Assembly (NCBI RefSeq): GCF_046105845.1
Contig: NZ_CP151004.1
Origin: Escherichia coli
GTDB taxonomy: Bacteria > Pseudomonadota > Gammaproteobacteria > Enterobacterales > Enterobacteriaceae
Strand: one strand, 5' to 3'
DNA: 64,000 nt
Below the pieces are notes generated by a model. That model was not told where the DNA came from. It ran no database searches and saw nothing but the letters and a program-made list of their open reading frames with translations. Position numbers and translations under genes: made by a program. Positions 116-51,686 of this stretch are shown piece after piece. Positions within the stretch are counted from its first letter, which is position 1. Every line of letters begins with the position of its first letter.

Positions 116-559
116 ATGCCGTTAAGTCCCTACCTCTCTTTTGCCGGTAACTGTTCCGACGCGATTGCCTATTATCAACGTACGTTGGGCGCGGAACTGC
201 TCTATAAAATCAGCTTCGGCGAAATGCCGAAATCAGCGCAGGACAGCGCCGAGAACTGCCCTTCCGGAATGCAATTTCCCGATACCGCCATCGCTCATGC
301 CAATGTGCGCATTGCCGGAAGCGACATCATGATGAGCGATGCCATGCCGTCAGGAAAAGCCAGCTACTCCGGCTTTACGCTGGTGCTCGATTCGCAACAG
401 GTCGAAGAAGGAAAACGCTGGTTTGATAACCTTGCAGCTAACGGAAAAATCGAAATGGCCTGGCAGGAAACTTTCTGGGCGCATGGCTTTGGCAAAGTCA
501 CCGATAAATTTGGCGTACCGTGGATGATTAATGTCGTCAAACAACAACCAACGCAATAA
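116..559 (+). CDS. yjdN: YjdN/PhnB, glyoxalase-fold protein of unknown function
   Basis: ORF track 116..559 (147 aa); protein recognised; position immediately upstream of phnC. Confidence 0.85.
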   Translation: MPLSPYLSFAGNCSDAIAYYQRTLGAELLYKISFGEMPKSAQDSAENCPSGMQFPDTAIAHANVRIAGSDIMMSDAMPSGKASYSGFTLVLDSQQVEEGKRWFDNLAANGKIEMAWQETFWAHGFGKVTDKFGVPWMINVVKQQPTQ

Positions 560-614
560 CCCGCCGGGAGGCCCGCCCTCCCGCACTGTCATCGAATTCC
601 CGTTAACTCTTCAT

Positions 615-632
615 CTGTTAGTCACTTTTAGT
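615..632 (+). promoter_or_regulatory. Putative Pho box (PhoB site) of the phnC promoter, with -10 GATAAT at 648..653
   Basis: CTGTTAG-TCAC-TTTTAGT, two 7-nt direct repeats with 4-nt spacer, about 17 nt upstream of a GATAAT -10 and 60 nt upstream of phnC ATG; phn operon is a known Pho regulon member. Confidence 0.5.
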
Positions 633-691
633 TAACAAAATCGTCACGATAATCCGCCACGATGGAGCCACTTTTTTAGGGAGGCTGCATC

Positions 692-1480
692 ATGCAAACG
701 ATTATCCGTGTCGAGAAGCTCGCCAAAACCTTCAATCAGCATCAGGCGCTGCATGCGGTTGATCTGAACATTCATCACGGTGAAATGGTGGCTCTGCTTG
801 GGCCGTCCGGTTCCGGCAAATCCACCCTTTTACGTCATTTAAGCGGTTTGATTACCGGCGATAAATCTGCCGGTAGCCATATCGAGCTGCTGGGCCGCAC
901 AGTCCAGCGCGAAGGCCGCCTGGCCCGCGATATCCGCAAAAGCCGCGCCAACACCGGCTACATCTTCCAACAATTCAACCTGGTGAATCGCCTGAGCGTA
1001 CTGGAGAACGTGCTGATTGGCGCGCTCGGCAGCACGCCATTCTGGCGCACCTGTTTTAGTTGGTTCACCCGCGAGCAGAAACAGCGCGCGTTACAGGCGC
1101 TGACCCGTGTTGGCATGGTGCACTTTGCCCATCAGCGCGTTTCCACCCTCTCCGGCGGACAGCAGCAGCGTGTGGCAATTGCCCGTGCGCTGATGCAGCA
1201 GGCGAAGGTGATTCTGGCCGATGAACCCATCGCCTCGCTGGACCCGGAATCGGCGCGCATCGTGATGGACACCCTGCGCGACATTAACCAGAACGACGGC
1301 ATTACCGTGGTCGTCACGCTGCATCAGGTGGATTACGCCCTGCGCTACTGCGAACGCATCGTCGCCCTGCGCCAGGGGCACGTCTTCTACGACGGCAGCA
1401 GCCAACAGTTTGATAACGAACGTTTTGACCATCTCTACCGCAGCATCAACCGCGTCGAAGAAAACGCGAAAGCTGCCTGA
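692..1480 (+). CDS. phnC: Phosphonate ABC transporter ATP-binding protein PhnC
   Basis: ORF track 262 aa; Walker [13 protein letters not shown] signature LSGGQQQR; GGGAGG RBS upstream. Confidence 0.95.
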
Positions 1481-1504
1481 CATCCCCATCATTGAGGAAA
1501 ACGA

Positions 1505-2521
1505 ATGAACGCTAAGATAATTGCCTCGCTGGCCTTCACCAGCATGTTCAGCCTCAGCACCCTGTTAAGCCCGGCGCACGCCGAAGAGCAGGAAAAGGCG
1601 CTGAATTTCGGCATTATTTCAACGGAATCACAGCAAAACCTGAAACCGCAATGGACGCCGTTCTTGCAGGATATGGAGAAGAAGCTGGGCGTAAAGGTCA
1701 ACGCCTTCTTTGCCCCGGACTACGCGGGCATTATCCAGGGGATGCGCTTCAATAAAGTGGATATCGCCTGGTACGGCAATCTGTCGGCGATGGAAGCGGT
1801 GGATCGCGCCAACGGTCAGGTCTTCGCCCAGACGGTCGCGGCGGATGGATCGCCAGGTTACTGGAGCGTGTTGATCGTCAACAAAGACAGCCCGATCAAC
1901 AACCTGAACGATCTGCTGGCGAAGCGGAAAGATCTCACCTTCGGTAATGGCGATCCTAACTCCACCTCTGGCTTCCTCGTCCCCGGTTACTACGTCTTCG
2001 CCAAAAACAATATCTCCGCCAGCGACTTCAAGCGCACCGTCAATGCCGGGCATGAAACCAACGCGCTGGCCGTCGCCAACAAGCAGGTGGATGTGGCGAC
2101 CAACAACACCGAGAACCTCGACAAGCTGAAAACCTCCGCACCGGAGAAGCTCAAAGAGCTGAAAGTGATCTGGAAATCGCCGCTGATCCCAGGCGATCCG
2201 ATCGTCTGGCGCAAAAATCTGTCCGAAACCACCAAAGACAAGATCTACGACTTCTTTATGAATTACGGCAAAACCCCGGAAGAGAAAGCGGTGCTGGAAC
2301 GCCTGGGCTGGGCCCCGTTCCGCGCCTCCAGCGACCTGCAACTGGTGCCGATTCGCCAGCTAGCACTGTTTAAAGAGATGCAGGGCGTGAAAAGCAATAA
2401 AGGGCTGAATGAGCAGGACAAGCTGGCGAAAACCACCGCGATTCAGGCGCAGCTGGATGACCTGGACCGCCTGAACAACGCGTTAAGCGCGATGAGTTCG
2501 GTGAGTAAAGCGGTGCAGTAA
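1505..2521 (+). CDS. phnD: Phosphonate ABC transporter periplasmic binding protein PhnD
   Basis: ORF track 338 aa; signal peptide then binding-protein fold; operon context. Confidence 0.95.
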   Translation: MNAKIIASLAFTSMFSLSTLLSPAHAEEQEKALNFGIISTESQQNLKPQWTPFLQDMEKKLGVKVNAFFAPDYAGIIQGMRFNKVDIAWYGNLSAMEAVDRANGQVFAQTVAADGSPGYWSVLIVNKDSPINNLNDLLAKRKDLTFGNGDPNSTSGFLVPGYYVFAKNNISASDFKRTVNAGHETNALAVANKQVDVATNNTENLDKLKTSAPEKLKELKVIWKSPLIPGDPIVWRKNLSETTKDKIYDFFMNYGKTPEEKAVLERLGWAPFRASSDLQLVPIRQLALFKEMQGVKSNKGLNEQDKLAKTTAIQAQLDDLDRLNNALSAMSSVSKAVQ

Positions 2522-2525
2522 ATCG

Positions 2526-2611
2526 TAAGTCGGATAAGACGCCACGGCGTCGCATCCGACAATGTGCAGACGTTGATGCCGGATGCGGTGCAAGCACCTT
2601 ATCCGGCCTAC
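2526..2611. repeat. BIME: two REP elements between phnD and phnE
   Basis: gtcggataagacgcc...ggcgtcgcatccgac and gccggatgcgg...ccttatccggcctac palindromic units. Confidence 0.7.
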
Positions 2612-2626
2612 AGACCGGAGCCAAAC

Positions 2627-3406
2627 ATGCAAACCATCACCATCGCCCCACCCAAGCGCAGCTGGTTCTCGCTTCTGAGCTGGGCCATTGTACTCGCCGT
2701 GCTGGTCGTCTCGTGGCAGGGCGCGGAAATGGCCCCGCTCACGCTGATTAAAGACGGCGGCAACATGGCGACGTTCGCTGCCGACTTCTTCCCGCCCGAT
2801 TTCAGCCAGTGGCAGGATTACCTCACCGAAATGGCCGTCACGCTGCAAATCGCCGTCTGGGGCACCGCGCTGGCGGTGGTTCTCTCCATCCCCTTCGGCC
2901 TGATGAGCGCCGAAAACCTGGTGCCGTGGTGGGTTTACCAGCCCGTTCGCCGCCTGATGGACGCCTGCCGCGCCATTAACGAGATGGTCTTCGCCATGCT
3001 GTTCGTGGTCGCCGTCGGTCTCGGTCCGTTCGCTGGCGTACTGGCGCTGTTTATCCACACCACCGGCGTGCTCTCCAAACTGCTTTCCGAAGCGGTAGAA
3101 GCAATTGAACCCGGTCCGGTGGAAGGTATTCGCGCCACTGGTGCCAACAAGCTCGAAGAGATCCTCTACGGCGTGCTGCCGCAGGTGATGCCGCTGCTGA
3201 TCTCCTACTCCCTCTATCGCTTCGAATCCAACGTCCGTTCGGCCACCGTTGTTGGCATGGTCGGCGCTGGCGGGATCGGCGTCACCCTGTGGGAAGCGAT
3301 TCGCGGTTTCCAGTTCCAGCAAACCTGCGCCCTGATGGTGCTGATTATCGTCACGGTCAGCCTGCTGGATTTCCTCTCTCAACGGTTGCGTAAGCACTTT
3401 ATCTGA
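2627..3406 (+). CDS. phnE: Phosphonate ABC transporter permease PhnE (intact reading frame)
   Basis: ORF track 2564..3406; start re-assigned to ATG 2627 ([12 protein letters not shown]...) because the upstream extension lies in REP sequence; continuous to stop. Confidence 0.9.
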
Positions 3407-3426: not shown

Positions 3427-4152
3427 ATGCACTTGTCTACACATCCGACCAGCTACCCAACACGCTATCAGGAGATAGCCGCAAAACTTGAGCAGGAGCT
3501 TCGTCAACACTACCGCTGCGGCGACTATCTTCCCGCCGAGCAGCAACTGGCGGCGCGCTTTGAGGTGAACCGCCACACCCTGCGCCGCGCCATCGACCAA
3601 CTGGTGGAAAAAGGCTGGGTACAGCGCCGTCAGGGCGTCGGCGTGCTGGTGCTGATGCGCCCGTTCGATTACCCGCTCAACGCCCAGGCGCGTTTTAGCC
3701 AGAACCTGCTGGATCAGGGCAGCCATCCCACCAGCGAAAAACTGCTGTCGGTGCTGCGCCCGGCCTCCGGTCACGTCGCTGACGCGCTGGGGATAACCGA
3801 GGGCGAGAACGTTATCCACCTGCGCACCCTGCGCCGGGTCAACGGCGTCGCGCTCTGTTTAATCGACCACTACTTTGCGGACCTCACCCTCTGGCCGACG
3901 CTGCAACGCTTCGACAGCGGCTCGCTGCACGATTTTCTGCGCGAGCAAACGGGGATTGCGCTGCGCCGCAGCCAGACGCGGATCAGCGCCCGCCGCGCCC
4001 AGGCCAAAGAGTGCCAGCGTCTTGAAATCCCGAATATGTCGCCGCTGCTGTGCGTGCGCACCCTTAACCACCGTGACGGTGAAAGCAGCCCGGCGGAGTA
4101 CTCCGTCAGCCTGACGCGCGCCGACATGATTGAATTCACTATGGAGCACTGA
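3427..4152 (+). CDS. phnF: GntR-family transcriptional regulator PhnF
   Basis: ORF track 3418..4152 begins with TTG; ATG at 3427 gives 241 aa MHLSTHPTSYP... Confidence 0.9.
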   Translation: MHLSTHPTSYPTRYQEIAAKLEQELRQHYRCGDYLPAEQQLAARFEVNRHTLRRAIDQLVEKGWVQRRQGVGVLVLMRPFDYPLNAQARFSQNLLDQGSHPTSEKLLSVLRPASGHVADALGITEGENVIHLRTLRRVNGVALCLIDHYFADLTLWPTLQRFDSGSLHDFLREQTGIALRRSQTRISARRAQAKECQRLEIPNMSPLLCVRTLNHRDGESSPAEYSVSLTRADMIEFTMEH

Positions 4153-7088: not shown

Positions 7089-7843
7089 ATCAACCGTTAC
7101 TTTCGGTCAATAACCTGACCCACCTTTACGCGCCGGGCAAAGGCTTTAGCGATGTCTCTTTTGATTTATGGCCGGGGGAAGTGCTGGGCATCGTCGGGGA
7201 ATCCGGCTCCGGGAAGACCACGCTGCTGAAATCAATTTCCGCGCGTCTGACGCCGCAGCAAGGGGAGATTCACTATGAAAACCGTTCCCTCTATGGCATG
7301 AGCGAGGCCGACCGCCGTCGCCTGCTGCGCACCGAATGGGGCGTGGTGCATCAGCATCCACTCGACGGCCTGCGCCGCCAGGTGTCGGCAGGCGGCAATA
7401 TCGGCGAGCGGCTGATGGCGACCGGGGCGCGTCATTACGGCGATATTCGCGCCACCGCGCAGAAGTGGCTGGAAGAGGTGGAGATTCCCGCTAACCGGAT
7501 CGACGACCTGCCAACCACCTTTTCCGGCGGCATGCAGCAGCGTTTGCAGATTGCCCGCAACCTGGTGACGCATCCGAAGCTGGTGTTTATGGACGAACCA
7601 ACCGGCGGGCTGGATGTATCCGTACAGGCGCGCCTGCTCGACCTGCTGCGCGGCCTGGTGGTGGAGCTGAACCTGGCGGTAGTGATTGTTACCCACGATC
7701 TGGGCGTCGCCCGCCTGCTGGCGGACCGTTTGCTGGTGATGAAACAGGGGCAAGTGGTGGAGAGTGGGTTAACCGACCGCGTGCTCGACGACCCGCACCA
7801 CCCGTACACCCAGTTGCTGGTGTCATCGGTTTTGCAGAATTGA
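7085..7843 (+). CDS. phnK: C-P lyase accessory ATP-binding protein PhnK
   Basis: ORF track 7055..7843; ATG 7085 ([11 protein letters not shown]...), 252 aa; Walker [10 protein letters not shown]. Confidence 0.9.
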
Positions 7844-7847
7844 GCCA

Positions 7848-7934
7848 GTGCCGGATACGGCGTAAACGCCTTATCCGGCCGACAAATGCGCTCCCCGTAG
7901 GTCGGATAAGACGCGTCAGCGTCGCATCCGACAC
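7848..7934. repeat. BIME: two REP elements between phnK and phnL
   Basis: gtgccggatacggcgtaaacgccttatccggc and gtcggataagacgcgtcagcgtcgcatccgac palindromic units. Confidence 0.7.
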
Positions 7935-10746: not shown

Positions 10747-11505
10747 ATGAGCCTGACCCTCACACTTACTGGCACTGGCGGCGCACAGGGCGTTCCCGCA
10801 TGGGGCTGTGAGTGCGCGGCCTGCGCCAGAGCGCGGCGCTCACCGCAGTATCGCCGCCAGCCATGCAGCGGCGTCGTGAAGTTTAACGACGCGATCACCC
10901 TGATCGACGCCGGGCTGCACGATCTCGCCGATCGCTGGTCGCCCGGATCGTTCCAGCAGTTTTTGCTGACGCACTACCATATGGATCACGTGCAGGGGCT
11001 GTTTCCGCTGCGCTGGGGCGTGGGCGATTCGATCCCGGTCTACGGCCCGCCGGATGAACAGGGCTGCGACGATCTGTTTAAACATCCGGGCCTGCTTGAT
11101 TTCAGCCACACGATGGAACCGTTTGTGGTGTTTGATTTGCAGGGGTTGCAGGTCACGCCCCTGCCGCTCAACCATTCGAAACTCACTTTCGGCTATCTAC
11201 TGGAAACGGCACATAACCGGGTGGCGTGGCTGTCTGACACCGCAGGCCTGCCGGAAAAAACGCTGAAATTTTTACGCAATAATCAGCCACAGGTAATGGT
11301 GATTGATTGCAGCCACCCACCGCGCGAGGATGCACCGCGTAATCACTGTGATTTAAACACCGTGCTGGCGCTGAATCAGGTTATCCGCTCGCCACGGGTG
11401 ATTCTGACCCATATCAGCCACCAGTTTGATGCGTGGCTGATGGAAAACGCACTGCCGTCGGGGTTTGAGGCGGGGTTTGATGGGATGGAGATTGGGGTGG
11501 AGTGA
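10747..11505 (+). CDS. phnP: Metallo-beta-lactamase-fold phosphodiesterase PhnP
   Basis: ORF track 252 aa; HxHxDH motif ([10 protein letters not shown]). Confidence 0.95.
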
Positions 11506-11539
11506 TGGGTGAGGGGCGATGCCTGCTCCATACCCAACA

Positions 11540-19738: not shown

Positions 19739-21886
19739 ATGAAAAAAGTCGTCACGGTTTGCCCCTATTGCGCATCAGGTTGCAAAATCAACCTGGTCGT
19801 CGATAACGGCAAAATCGTCCGGGCGGAGGCAGCGCAGGGGAAAACCAACCAGGGTACCCTGTGTCTGAAGGGTTATTATGGCTGGGACTTCATTAACGAT
19901 ACCCAGATCCTGACCCCGCGCCTGAAAACCCCCATGATCCGTCGCCAGCGTGGCGGCAAACTCGAACCTGTTTCCTGGGATGAGGCACTGAATTACGTTG
20001 CCGAGCGCCTGAGCGCCATCAAAGAGAAGTACGGTCCGGATGCCATCCAGACGACCGGCTCCTCGCGTGGTACGGGTAACGAAACCAACTATGTAATGCA
20101 AAAATTTGCGCGCGCCGTTATTGGTACCAATAACGTTGACTGCTGCGCTCGTGTCTGACACGGCCCATCGGTTGCAGGTCTGCACCAATCGGTCGGTAAT
20201 GGCGCAATGAGCAATGCTATTAACGAAATTGATAATACCGATTTAGTGTTCGTTTTCGGGTACAACCCGGCGGATTCCCACCCAATCGTGGCGAACCACG
20301 TAATTAACGCTAAACGTAACGGGGCGAAAATTATCGTCTGCGATCCGCGCAAAATTGAAACCGCGCGCATTGCTGACATGCACATTGCACTGAAAAACGG
20401 CTCGAACATCGCGCTGTTGAATGCGATGGGTCATGTCATTATTGAAGAAAACCTGTACGACAAAGCGTTCGTCGCTTCCCGTACAGAAGGCTTTGAAGAG
20501 TATCGTAAAATCGTTGAAGGCTACACGCCGGAGTCGGTTGAAGATATCACCGGCGTCAGCGCCAGTGAGATTCGTCAGGCGGCGCGGATGTATGCCCAGG
20601 CGAAAAGCGCCGCCATCCTGTGGGGCATGGGTGTAACCCAGTTCTACCAGGGCGTGGAAACCGTGCGTTCTCTGACCAGCCTCGCGATGCTGACTGGTAA
20701 CCTCGGTAAGCCGCATGCGGGTGTAAACCCGGTTCGTGGTCAGAACAACGTGCAGGGTGCCTGCGATATGGGCGCGCTGCCGGATACGTATCCGGGATAC
20801 CAGTACGTAAAAGATCCGGCTAACCGCGAGAAATTCGCCAAAGCCTGGGGCGTGGAAAGCCTGCCTGCTCATACCGGTTATCGCATCAGCGAGCTGCCGC
20901 ACCGCGCAGCGCATGGCGAAGTGCGTGCCGCGTACATTATGGGCGAAGATCCGCTGCAAACTGACGCGGAGCTGTCGGCAGTACGTAAAGCCTTTGAAGA
21001 TCTGGAACTGGTTATCGTTCAGGACATCTTTATGACCAAAACCGCGTCGGCGGCGGATGTTATTTTACCGTCAACGTCGTGGGGCGAGCATGAAGGCGTG
21101 TTTACTGCGGCTGACCGTGGCTTCCAGCGTTTCTTCAAAGCAGTTGAACCGAAATGGGATCTGAAAACGGACTGGCAAATCATCAGTGAAATCGCCACCC
21201 GTATGGGTTATCCGATGCACTACAACAACACCCAGGAGATCTGGGATGAGTTGCGTCATCTGTGCCCGGATTTCTACGGTGCGACTTACGAGAAAATGGG
21301 CGAACTGGGCTTCATTCAGTGGCCTTGCCGCGATACTTCAGATGCCGATCAGGGGACTTCTTATCTGTTTAAAGAGAAGTTTGATACCCCGAACGGTCTG
21401 GCGCAGTTCTTCACCTGCGACTGGGTAGCGCCAATCGACAAACTCACCGACGAATATCCGATGGTACTGTCAACGGTGCGTGAAGTTGGTCACTACTCTT
21501 GCCGTTCGATGACCGGTAACTGTGCGGCACTGGCGGCGCTGGCTGATGAACCTGGCTACGCACAAATCAATACCGAAGACGCCAAACGTCTGGGTATTGA
21601 AGATGAGGCATTGGTTTGGGTGCACTCGCGTAAAGGCAAAATTATCACCCGTGCGCAGGTCAGCGATCGCCCGAACAAAGGGGCGATTTACATGACCTAC
21701 CAGTGGTGGATTGGTGCCTGTAACGAGCTGGTTACCGAAAACTTAAGCCCGATTACGAAAACGCCGGAATACAAATACTGCGCCGTGCGCGTCGAGCCGA
21801 TCGCCGATCAGCGCGCCGCCGAGCAGTACGTGATTGACGAGTACAACAAGTTGAAAACTCGCCTGCGCGAAGCGGCACTGGCGTAA
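19739..21886 (+). CDS. fdhF: Formate dehydrogenase H (selenoprotein); in-frame UGA at 20156..20158 read as selenocysteine
   Basis: ORF track pieces 19739..20158 and 20207..21886 are in one frame separated by TGA; combined 715 aa; CxxCxxGC 4Fe-4S motif at N-terminus; ...CARV-U-HGPSVAG context. Confidence 0.95.
20156..20204 (+). promoter_or_regulatory. SECIS element (SelB-binding mRNA hairpin) directly 3' of the fdhF UGA
   Basis: UGA followed by cacggcccatcggttgcaggtctgcaccaatcggtcggtaatggcg, which can fold as a stem-loop. Confidence 0.85.
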
Positions 21887-33138: not shown

Positions 33139-33173
33139 GCCGGATGCGGCGGATAACGCCTTATCCGGTCTAC
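33139..33173. repeat. REP element between acs and yjcH
   Basis: gccggatgcggcggataacgccttatccggtctac palindromic unit. Confidence 0.7.
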
Positions 33174-51650: not shown

Positions 51651-51686
51651 TGGCCGGATAAGGCATTCACGCCGCATCCGGCACAA
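51651..51686. repeat. REP element downstream of alr
   Basis: gccggataaggcattcacgccgcatccggc palindromic unit. Confidence 0.7.

Follow-up and report, generated by a model that had tools for sequence, protein, structure and literature searches.

A BIME inside the phn operon of Escherichia coli and the hairpins found at the phnD-phnE junction of Enterobacteriaceae

The REP family has its founding example in intercistronic REPs that follow genes for binding proteins. In malE-REP-malF of E. coli and hisJ-REP-hisQ of Salmonella, a binding-protein gene, a REP pair and the gene of a membrane component of an ABC importer succeed one another within one operon, and the mechanism proposed is a barrier to 3' exonucleases leading to an excess of binding protein, an effect that is said to have been measured by deletion of the REPs (by Higgins in 1982 and Newbury in 1987). 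The phnD-phnE junction of the E. coli phn operon, described here, has the same layout and could work by the same mechanism; it differs from these two systems in that the ATPase gene phnC lies upstream together with phnD, in that eleven further genes lie downstream, and in that its effect is one that we infer.

REP325 (naRNA1-6), situated in yjdM-yjdN about 2.5 kb upstream of the phn element, is likewise set between two co-directional genes of one operon. It combines a Y REP and a Z2 REP, head to head around a short linker, and its Rfam model matches the phn element over the full length. With respect to transcription, Y and Z2 come in opposite orders in the two elements, the linkers differ (with a 4-nt insertion in the alignment), and REP325 forms a tandem array of six units in K-12 and a single unit in the strain studied here, whereas the phn BIME is single. 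For REP325, upstream stabilisation and downstream attenuation have both been shown experimentally, the downstream gene of yjdMN being lowered about 10-fold in a partly Rho-dependent manner (bioRxiv 10.64898/2026.03.23.713779), whereas for the phn element such an effect would be a prediction. In the same study, 146 tandem gene pairs separated by REPs had a median log-transformed ratio of upstream to downstream expression of 0.96, against -0.09 for the controls. In reviews, REP hairpins are credited both with attenuation and with blocking ribonucleolytic decay (PMC12306157), so that the general premise of the preliminary description of this locus, namely that REPs inside operons can stabilise upstream and attenuate downstream expression, is documented.

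Two other types of elements have to be considered for this junction. According to Liang, Rudd and Deutscher (2015), as they are cited in PMC12306157, REPs lying less than 16 nt from a stop codon reduce the translation of the upstream gene; the first REP of the phn pair obeys the same distance rule, and the effect predicted for phnD by analogy with that citation, a lower amount of upstream protein, goes in the direction opposite to that of the stabiliser model. The BoxC element, also known as PIT or TMECO (PMC4666352), fills the same spacer in part of the E. coli population (1,506 out of 5,426 complete genomes) as well as in many Enterobacter, Leclercia, Kluyvera and Buttiauxella. Like the BIME it gives a strong hairpin just after phnD, but its sequence family is unrelated.

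The REP pair of the phnD-phnE spacer and the start of phnE

The window (the whole stretch of 64,000 nucleotides of E. coli DNA that was analysed) contains the co-directional row of genes phnC to phnP, within which the following features were located around the phnD-phnE junction:

1505-2521, + strand: phnD, gene of the periplasmic phosphonate-binding protein (from the list of open reading frames and the RefSeq annotation of the 100% identical NZ_AP022087.1)
2519-2521: TAA stop codon of phnD
2522-2626: phnD-phnE spacer, 105 bp
2525-2561, + strand: REP1, Z2-like, an inverted repeat that aligns to the second hairpin of Rfam naRNA4
2529-2543 and 2546-2560: arms of the REP1 stem, preceded by GTAA at 2525-2528
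2562-2576, + strand: head-to-head linker, ATGTGCAGACGTTGA, 15 nt
2577-2611, + strand: REP2, Y type, inverted, reading TGCCGGATGCGGTGC AA GCACCTTATCCGGC CTAC, an inverted repeat that aligns to the first naRNA4 hairpin on the minus strand
2578-2591 and 2594-2607: arms of the REP2 stem, followed by CTAC at 2608-2611
2564-2626, + strand: artefact of the mechanical reading frame, 21 codons that prolong phnE upstream into REP2 and the linker
2617-2620, + strand: Shine-Dalgarno sequence of phnE, GGAG, 6 nt before ATG 2627 and outside both hairpins
2627-3406, + strand: phnE, permease gene, 259 aa (also named phnE in the RefSeq annotation of the identical genome)

The stretch 2525-2611 corresponds to a single BIME unit that belongs to the REP family of E. 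coli and is made of a Z2-like REP and a Y REP placed head to head on both sides of a short linker. The preliminary description had proposed a BIME of two REP units at 2526-2611, which is right to within one base, and the identification is borne out by the two inverted palindromes, the folding, the copy number and the naRNA4 match. The stem of REP1 is formed by GTCGGATAAGACGCC and GGCGTCGCATCCGAC (plus strand); REP1 and REP2 are mutually inverted, both have an internal AA/GC mismatch, and their stem arms are 86-87% complementary. Folding of the RNA from 2510 to 2640 gave -48.2 kcal/mol (z = -3.3, none of 200 shuffles being as stable), with a centroid structure consisting of two separate hairpins, both of which are also present in the minimum free energy (MFE) structure. 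The REP core pattern GGATGCG-N4-20-CTTATCC was encountered 5 times in the window for 0.04 expected by chance, and the 93-bp element was found by blastn, which undercounts it, at a median of at least 27 places per E. coli genome. The Rfam model RF02564 (naRNA4), whose source is the 77-nt Y-linker-Z2 unit of REP325 (PMC4550694), covers 2528-2608 at full length on the minus strand with 64.6 bits for a gathering score of 59.5; on the plus strand, which is sense to phn, the score of 49.8 bits is below this threshold. The match reflects the Y-linker-Z2 architecture of the BIME and is no evidence for an RNA gene.

E. coli REPs are defined by a GTAG at the foot of the stem and by a two-base mismatch inside it (PMC3333891). 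In the window, the CTAC at 2608-2611 of REP2 reads GTAG on the opposite strand, the foot of REP1 is GTAA (GTAG in MG1655, O157 and RCAD0514), and the two-base mismatch is present in both hairpins. With about 35-40 bp each, both units are imperfect palindromes that can adopt a stem-loop structure, and the element is of the dispersed, extragenic and multicopy kind, sitting between coding sequences. Every defining feature of the E. coli REPs that we examined is present. The head-to-head arrangement, the 15-nt linker and the combination of y and z2 REPs are moreover features of BIME-2; tandem multiple copies, which are usual for BIME-2 without being strictly required, were found neither here nor in any of the sampled E. 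coli BIME alleles, all of which have a single unit. As for the distance rule of stop-proximal REPs, 3 nt separate the phnD stop codon from the GTAA of REP1 and 7 nt separate it from the stem. Reading of the linker sequence revealed no IHF-type consensus.

Other identities of the spacer were tried and rejected. An intrinsic terminator does not fit, since there is no U tract and no terminator-like site in 2400-2700, REP2 being followed by AGACCGGAGCC. No promoter-like site was found in the spacer by a consensus scan of 400-3000, which discards an internal promoter. The spacer of the window is not a BoxC / PIT / TMECO element either, the triplex-type motif CCCTCTCCC..GGGAGAGGG..GGGTGAGGG being absent from it. 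The Pho-box pattern performed no better than chance, and no occurrence with at most 3 mismatches was found near phnC.

The position inside the operon and not at its end, also put forward earlier, agrees both with the co-directional phnC-P row and with RNA-seq data of K-12 under phosphate starvation, where all 14 phn genes were assembled as one transcript (PMC3734233). The phn BIME therefore lies between co-directional genes transcribed as one unit, as in malE-malF, hisJ-hisQ and yjdM-yjdN. The finding itself is already known in the sense that the element type is known and that this allele, which is also that of K-12 MG1655, has been in the sequence record for decades through this strain. The MG1655 record, in the copy used here, has no repeat features whatever, including at phnK-phnL, so that the missing REP annotation there carries no meaning. 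The RepRanger supplements have no phn entries, and nothing specific was found in the literature on phnD/phnE together with REP.

On the basis of sequence comparison, the start of phnE is placed at ATG 2627 (not 2628). PhnE homology, as detected by tblastn in 77 other species, begins at residue 1 or 2 of the protein starting at this ATG and never reaches upstream. In all the E. coli BoxC alleles, the phnE ATG is preceded at a distance of 5 codons by an in-frame TAA, and many other species have an in-frame stop 1-8 codons upstream, without any alternative start. The GGAG lies 6 nt before ATG 2627, the motif ACGGAGCC(A/T)AA at the phnE Shine-Dalgarno sequence is conserved across genera, and PGAP uses the start equivalent to 2627 in 7/7 E. 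coli genomes whose annotation was fetched. The mechanical open reading frame 2564-3406 opens at the GTG of the linker (2564) and runs through REP2, and the start of phnE1 in the MG1655 record NC_000913.3 (4323281) corresponds to window position 2576, 17 codons upstream of the conserved start, where an ATG opens on the last base of the linker. It could be argued from this open frame and from the MG1655 annotation that translation begins at GTG 2564 or ATG 2576 and that part of the BIME encodes an N-terminal extension of PhnE, but the homology limits, the in-frame stops, the Shine-Dalgarno site and the PGAP starts led us to reject such a coding extension, to which we give practically no credit. 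The preliminary description had held the extension to be an artefact, and the same evidence, above all the homology and the stops of the BoxC alleles, sides with it. The MG1655 start seems to be a legacy error of annotation. In K-12, phnE1 should be made to start at ATG 2627, to which the extensions made by ORF callers should also be moved, the phnD-phnE gap being read as a REP pair with no coding sequence.

The phnE gene of the window is intact and is devoid of the 8-bp insertion of K-12. At the site corresponding to approximately 3037-3052 of the window, MG1655 phnE contains an extra 8-bp copy, GCTGGCGT, which is the known cryptic or phase-variable allele of K-12.

The phnD-phnE spacer in other strains and genera

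The stretch 2300-2900 of the window is 100% identical to strain WP4-S18-ESBL-07 and finds matches in 5,395 of the 5,426 complete E. coli genomes. Across these 5,426 genomes the spacer is dimorphic and contains either the BIME or the unrelated BoxC/PIT repeat, with the following counts, which depend on megablast coverage thresholds:

BIME-type spacer: 3,873/5,426 genomes (71%)
BoxC-type spacer, all forms: 1,506/5,426 genomes
Long inverted BoxC pair, 124-125 bp: 360 of the 1,506 BoxC genomes (7% of all)
Collapsed BoxC hairpin: 21% of genomes

In the BoxC strains, as seen in the spacers of genomes matching in two pieces, all the DNA that extends from the phnD stop almost to the Shine-Dalgarno sequence is replaced by CCCTCTCCCTTGAGGGAGAGGGTTAGGGTGAGGGG. 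This sequence is the BoxC / PIT / TMECO intrastrand-triplex motif and, save for its last base, equals entry 2 in Table 1 of PMC4666352. In the other BoxC alleles sampled, what is left after collapse is a simple hairpin of 61-67 bp, CCCTCTCCC-loop-GGGAGAGGG. The spacer alleles seen in E. coli therefore comprise a 105-bp BIME, an 89-bp BIME in which the loop of REP1 is deleted, and BoxC forms of 61, 67, 124 and 125 bp. In the literature available, no report was found of an alternation of BIME and BoxC at one intercistronic site in the E. coli population.

In E. coli, the gene ends that border the spacer (3' for phnD, 5' for phnE) are themselves unusually diverse. Over the 601 bp of 2300-2900, an identity of 99% or more to the window is reached by only 7 E. 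coli records out of about 5,400, the majority of the records lying at 95-99%.

The junction was then compared between genera. The PhnD scan of species-representative genomes yielded 80 loci, and the set that was folded consisted of the window and 77 Enterobacteriaceae species. In this set, 76/78 phnD-phnE spacers fold at -19 kcal/mol or better, and 75/78 have z < -2 relative to mononucleotide shuffles (30 per spacer). The first paired base is at most 15 nt from the phnD stop in 76/78 species, these distances being read from MFE structures and therefore crude. At the same loci the median spacer is 105 nt for phnD-phnE, phnC-phnD and phnE-phnF having medians of 24 and 20 nt, respectively, and only two genomes have a short spacer (22-23 nt) devoid of hairpin.

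The sequences that provide these hairpins differ from one genus to the other. Species-specific REP-type palindromes are found in Citrobacter, Salmonella arizonae and diarizonae, Cedecea, Dryocola and some Kluyvera, Buttiauxella and Enterobacter, and several of these spacers share the head-to-head layout of E. coli. Other Enterobacter, Kluyvera and Buttiauxella contain BoxC, sometimes tandemly expanded, as do the sampled Leclercia, Lelliottia, Yokenella, Huaxiibacter and Pseudocitrobacter. A unique, non-repeat hairpin is found in three Atlantibacter species, Enterobacillus and strain B14, and a unique hairpin also follows phnD in two Vibrio. A clear U tract after the hairpin was seen neither in the E. 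coli BIME nor in Atlantibacter, Enterobacillus and the two Vibrio. RNAalifold, applied to the BIME spacers of E. coli, Salmonella and Citrobacter, gave an alternative pairing between the REPs and no compensatory changes. However, since the REPs evolve in concert within a genome, covariation cannot separate an RNA function from constraints acting at the DNA level, and for the same reason the conservation of the palindromes says little on selection at the RNA level; the argument rests on unrelated sequences giving the same structure.

These data are in agreement, tentatively, with the hypothesis that the site just after phnD could be a selected "hairpin slot", from Vibrio to Escherichia, filled interchangeably by REP/BIME, BoxC/PIT or unique stem-loops; this is possible, though we would hold it with some reserve. 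We found no report, in the literature available, of a hairpin kept after phnD across genera whatever its source. If the hypothesis is true, BoxC elements might replace REPs functionally in stabilising or attenuating RNA between cistrons, and the E. coli population would be a ready-made allelic series at one site. To our knowledge, the function of BoxC has been unknown since the 1990s. One site that keeps a hairpin across genera while the sequence forming it is exchanged, and that holds either a BIME or a BoxC element according to the E. coli strain, is a clean natural system, and it opens the questions of whether such repeats are kept for RNA structure and whether differences of repeats between strains tune phosphonate uptake without any change in promoter or protein.

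Several minor observations were made on these loci. Tandem expansions occur in the phnD-phnE spacer elsewhere (loci L028, at 3518-3796, L077, L009, L051 and L084 of the scan): the spacer of Pseudenterobacter timonensis contains four copies of a unit of about 45 nt, that of Buttiauxella izardii has repeated BoxC half-units, and in Pseudocitrobacter faecalis the BoxC pair is duplicated. The PhnD of Pseudocitrobacter faecalis (L009) and P. vendiensis (L010) is 99% identical to the E. coli protein, and the spacer of P. vendiensis is identical to the 61-bp E. coli BoxC allele, a likeness which suggests either a recent transfer of the phn region with E. coli or mislabelled assemblies. The 80 loci retained from the scan include no Escherichia species. 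In Kluyvera intermedia (L058), the frame opened at the start of the phnD match stops about 700 nt before the end of the phnD homology, suggesting an internal stop or a frameshift in phnD of this assembly.

Possible effect on the phn message and competing explanations

By analogy with the described systems, the BIME probably acts as a decay barrier and partial attenuator that favours phnCD over the downstream genes. Following the deposition of a BIME unit in the intercistronic spacer after phnD, transcription from the phnC promoter would generate two stable stem-loops in the phn mRNA, beginning 7 nt after the phnD stop and ending 9 nt before the phnE Shine-Dalgarno sequence. With no U tract, most polymerases would read through. 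The hairpins would then block 3'-to-5' exonucleolytic decay, allowing the phnCD segment to outlive the downstream message, and they may partly attenuate the read-through, possibly with the aid of Rho. As a net effect, the ATPase and above all the periplasmic binding protein would exceed the permease, PhnF and the C-P lyase enzymes in the amounts of both mRNA and protein. The BIME would thus give a plausible reason for an excess of binding protein and ATPase over the permease and the C-P lyase enzymes.

Since K-12 gives a single 14-gene transcript, the BIME is no full stop. In K-12, whose phn operon has the same BIME allele as the window, coverage declines along the operon under phosphate starvation; in the comparison of a delta-phoB mutant with the wild type under phosphate limitation, a PhoB-dependent signal that could be tested was obtained for phnC and phnD alone (log2 fold change of -3.2 and -2.05, respectively), and phnE to phnH were given without adjusted p-value, all these K-12 numbers being weak because of low induction. 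In DESeq2, a missing adjusted p-value means that the counts are too low for the test. Against a decay barrier, REP effects have been reported as highly context dependent, with no general lengthening of half-lives (bioRxiv 10.64898/2026.03.23.713779), and PIT/BoxC elements have no reported terminator or promoter activity (PMC4666352). The dimorphism within E. coli and the free turnover of repeats across genera also count against it, as they are what would be expected of a permissive landing site for selfish palindromes.

This last point is the basis of the main competing explanation, in which the element would be a neutral passenger, namely a palindromic repeat of the selfish or hitch-hiking kind, lodged in a tolerant non-coding gap (of which the operon has few) and having no meaningful effect on phn expression, the hairpins recurring through insertion, conversion and collapse. 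The extensive turnover of alleles within E. coli, with two lengths of BIME and four of BoxC, and the presence of different elements and tandem expansions according to the genus speak in its favour, as do the description of BoxC sites as hot spots of intergenic change, where collapse to simple hairpins is a known mutational pattern (PMC4666352), and the proposal that TnpA-REP targets existing REP/BIME sites (PMC3333891). However, a purely passive insertion does not account well for the strong unique hairpin after phnD in the lineages that have no repeat there (the three Atlantibacter, Enterobacillus, strain B14 and the two Vibrio), for the rarity of hairpin-free spacers (2/78), or for the other spacers of the phn operon, which stayed at about 20 nt; moreover, the adjacent REP325 has measured effects on its own operon. 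We consequently regard a neutral passenger as rather doubtful, while giving it more weight than the remaining explanations. One of these, which is compatible with a stabiliser role, is that ribosomes terminating on phnD stall at REP1 and that the mRNA is cleaved, so that the output of PhnD falls. The short distances from the stop codon to REP1 (3 nt) and to its stem (7 nt), together with the first paired base within 15 nt of the stop in 76/78 species, fit this proposal, but such MFE-based distances are crude and more binding protein than permease is normally required, so that a lowering of PhnD runs counter to what would be expected; we judge it unlikely.

A role at the level of the DNA or of the nucleoid, and not of the phn mRNA, seems very improbable. 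The element would in that case be a BIME-2-type site for gyrase, a HU or cruciform site, or the source of a nucleoid-associated RNA similar to naRNA4. Gyrase cleavage at BIME-2 is found in the literature and was counted in favour of this role, as was the Rfam naRNA4 match above the gathering score; in addition, naRNA4 and REP325 have been proposed to condense the nucleoid with HU (PMC4550694). But the match above threshold is antisense to the operon, the transcribed strand scoring 49.8 bits (<59.5), and it corresponds to the shared Y-linker-Z2 architecture and not to a demonstrated RNA gene. The phn element is also a single unit and not a tandem array, and, according to more recent data, REP325/naRNA4 does not compact the nucleoid and contacts between REPs are not seen (bioRxiv 10.64898/2026.03.23.713779). 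The decay barrier with partial attenuation is therefore the reading that we retain as probable for the phn BIME.

Other repeats and RNA motifs of the window

A second BIME is present inside the phn operon at 7850-7934, between phnK (which ends at 7843) and phnL (ATG 7955). It associates a Y REP (tgccggatacggcgtaaacgccttatccggccgac) and a Z2-like REP, tail to tail, and is below the Rfam naRNA4 threshold; at a coverage of at least 80%, this allele was found in 4,840/5,426 E. coli genomes. The window itself starts (1-50) inside the REP325-type unit of yjdM-yjdN, whose Z2 hairpin GCCTGATGCGACGC..GCGTCTTATCAGGC lies at about 18-50. The yjdM-yjdN gap measures 159 bp, with one Y-linker-Z2 unit, in the 100% identical genome, and 657 bp, with reportedly six units, in MG1655. 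Taken together, the REP325-type unit and the phnD-phnE and phnK-phnL elements make three BIMEs inside operons within 8 kb.

After phnP, only a BoxC/TMECO remnant (GGGTGAGGGG) was found at 11505-11520, and the corresponding position of MG1655 (4,314,285-4,314,320) has a full BoxC/TMECO motif (PMC4666352). Elsewhere in the window, single Y-type REP units are located at 33139-33173 (+) and 51653-51682 (-). Two further Rfam families were detected above their gathering scores, namely the selenocysteine insertion element SECIS_2 at 20151-20205 (+), with 87 bits, and the Hfq-binding sRNA sraL at 40502-40642 (+), with 153 bits.
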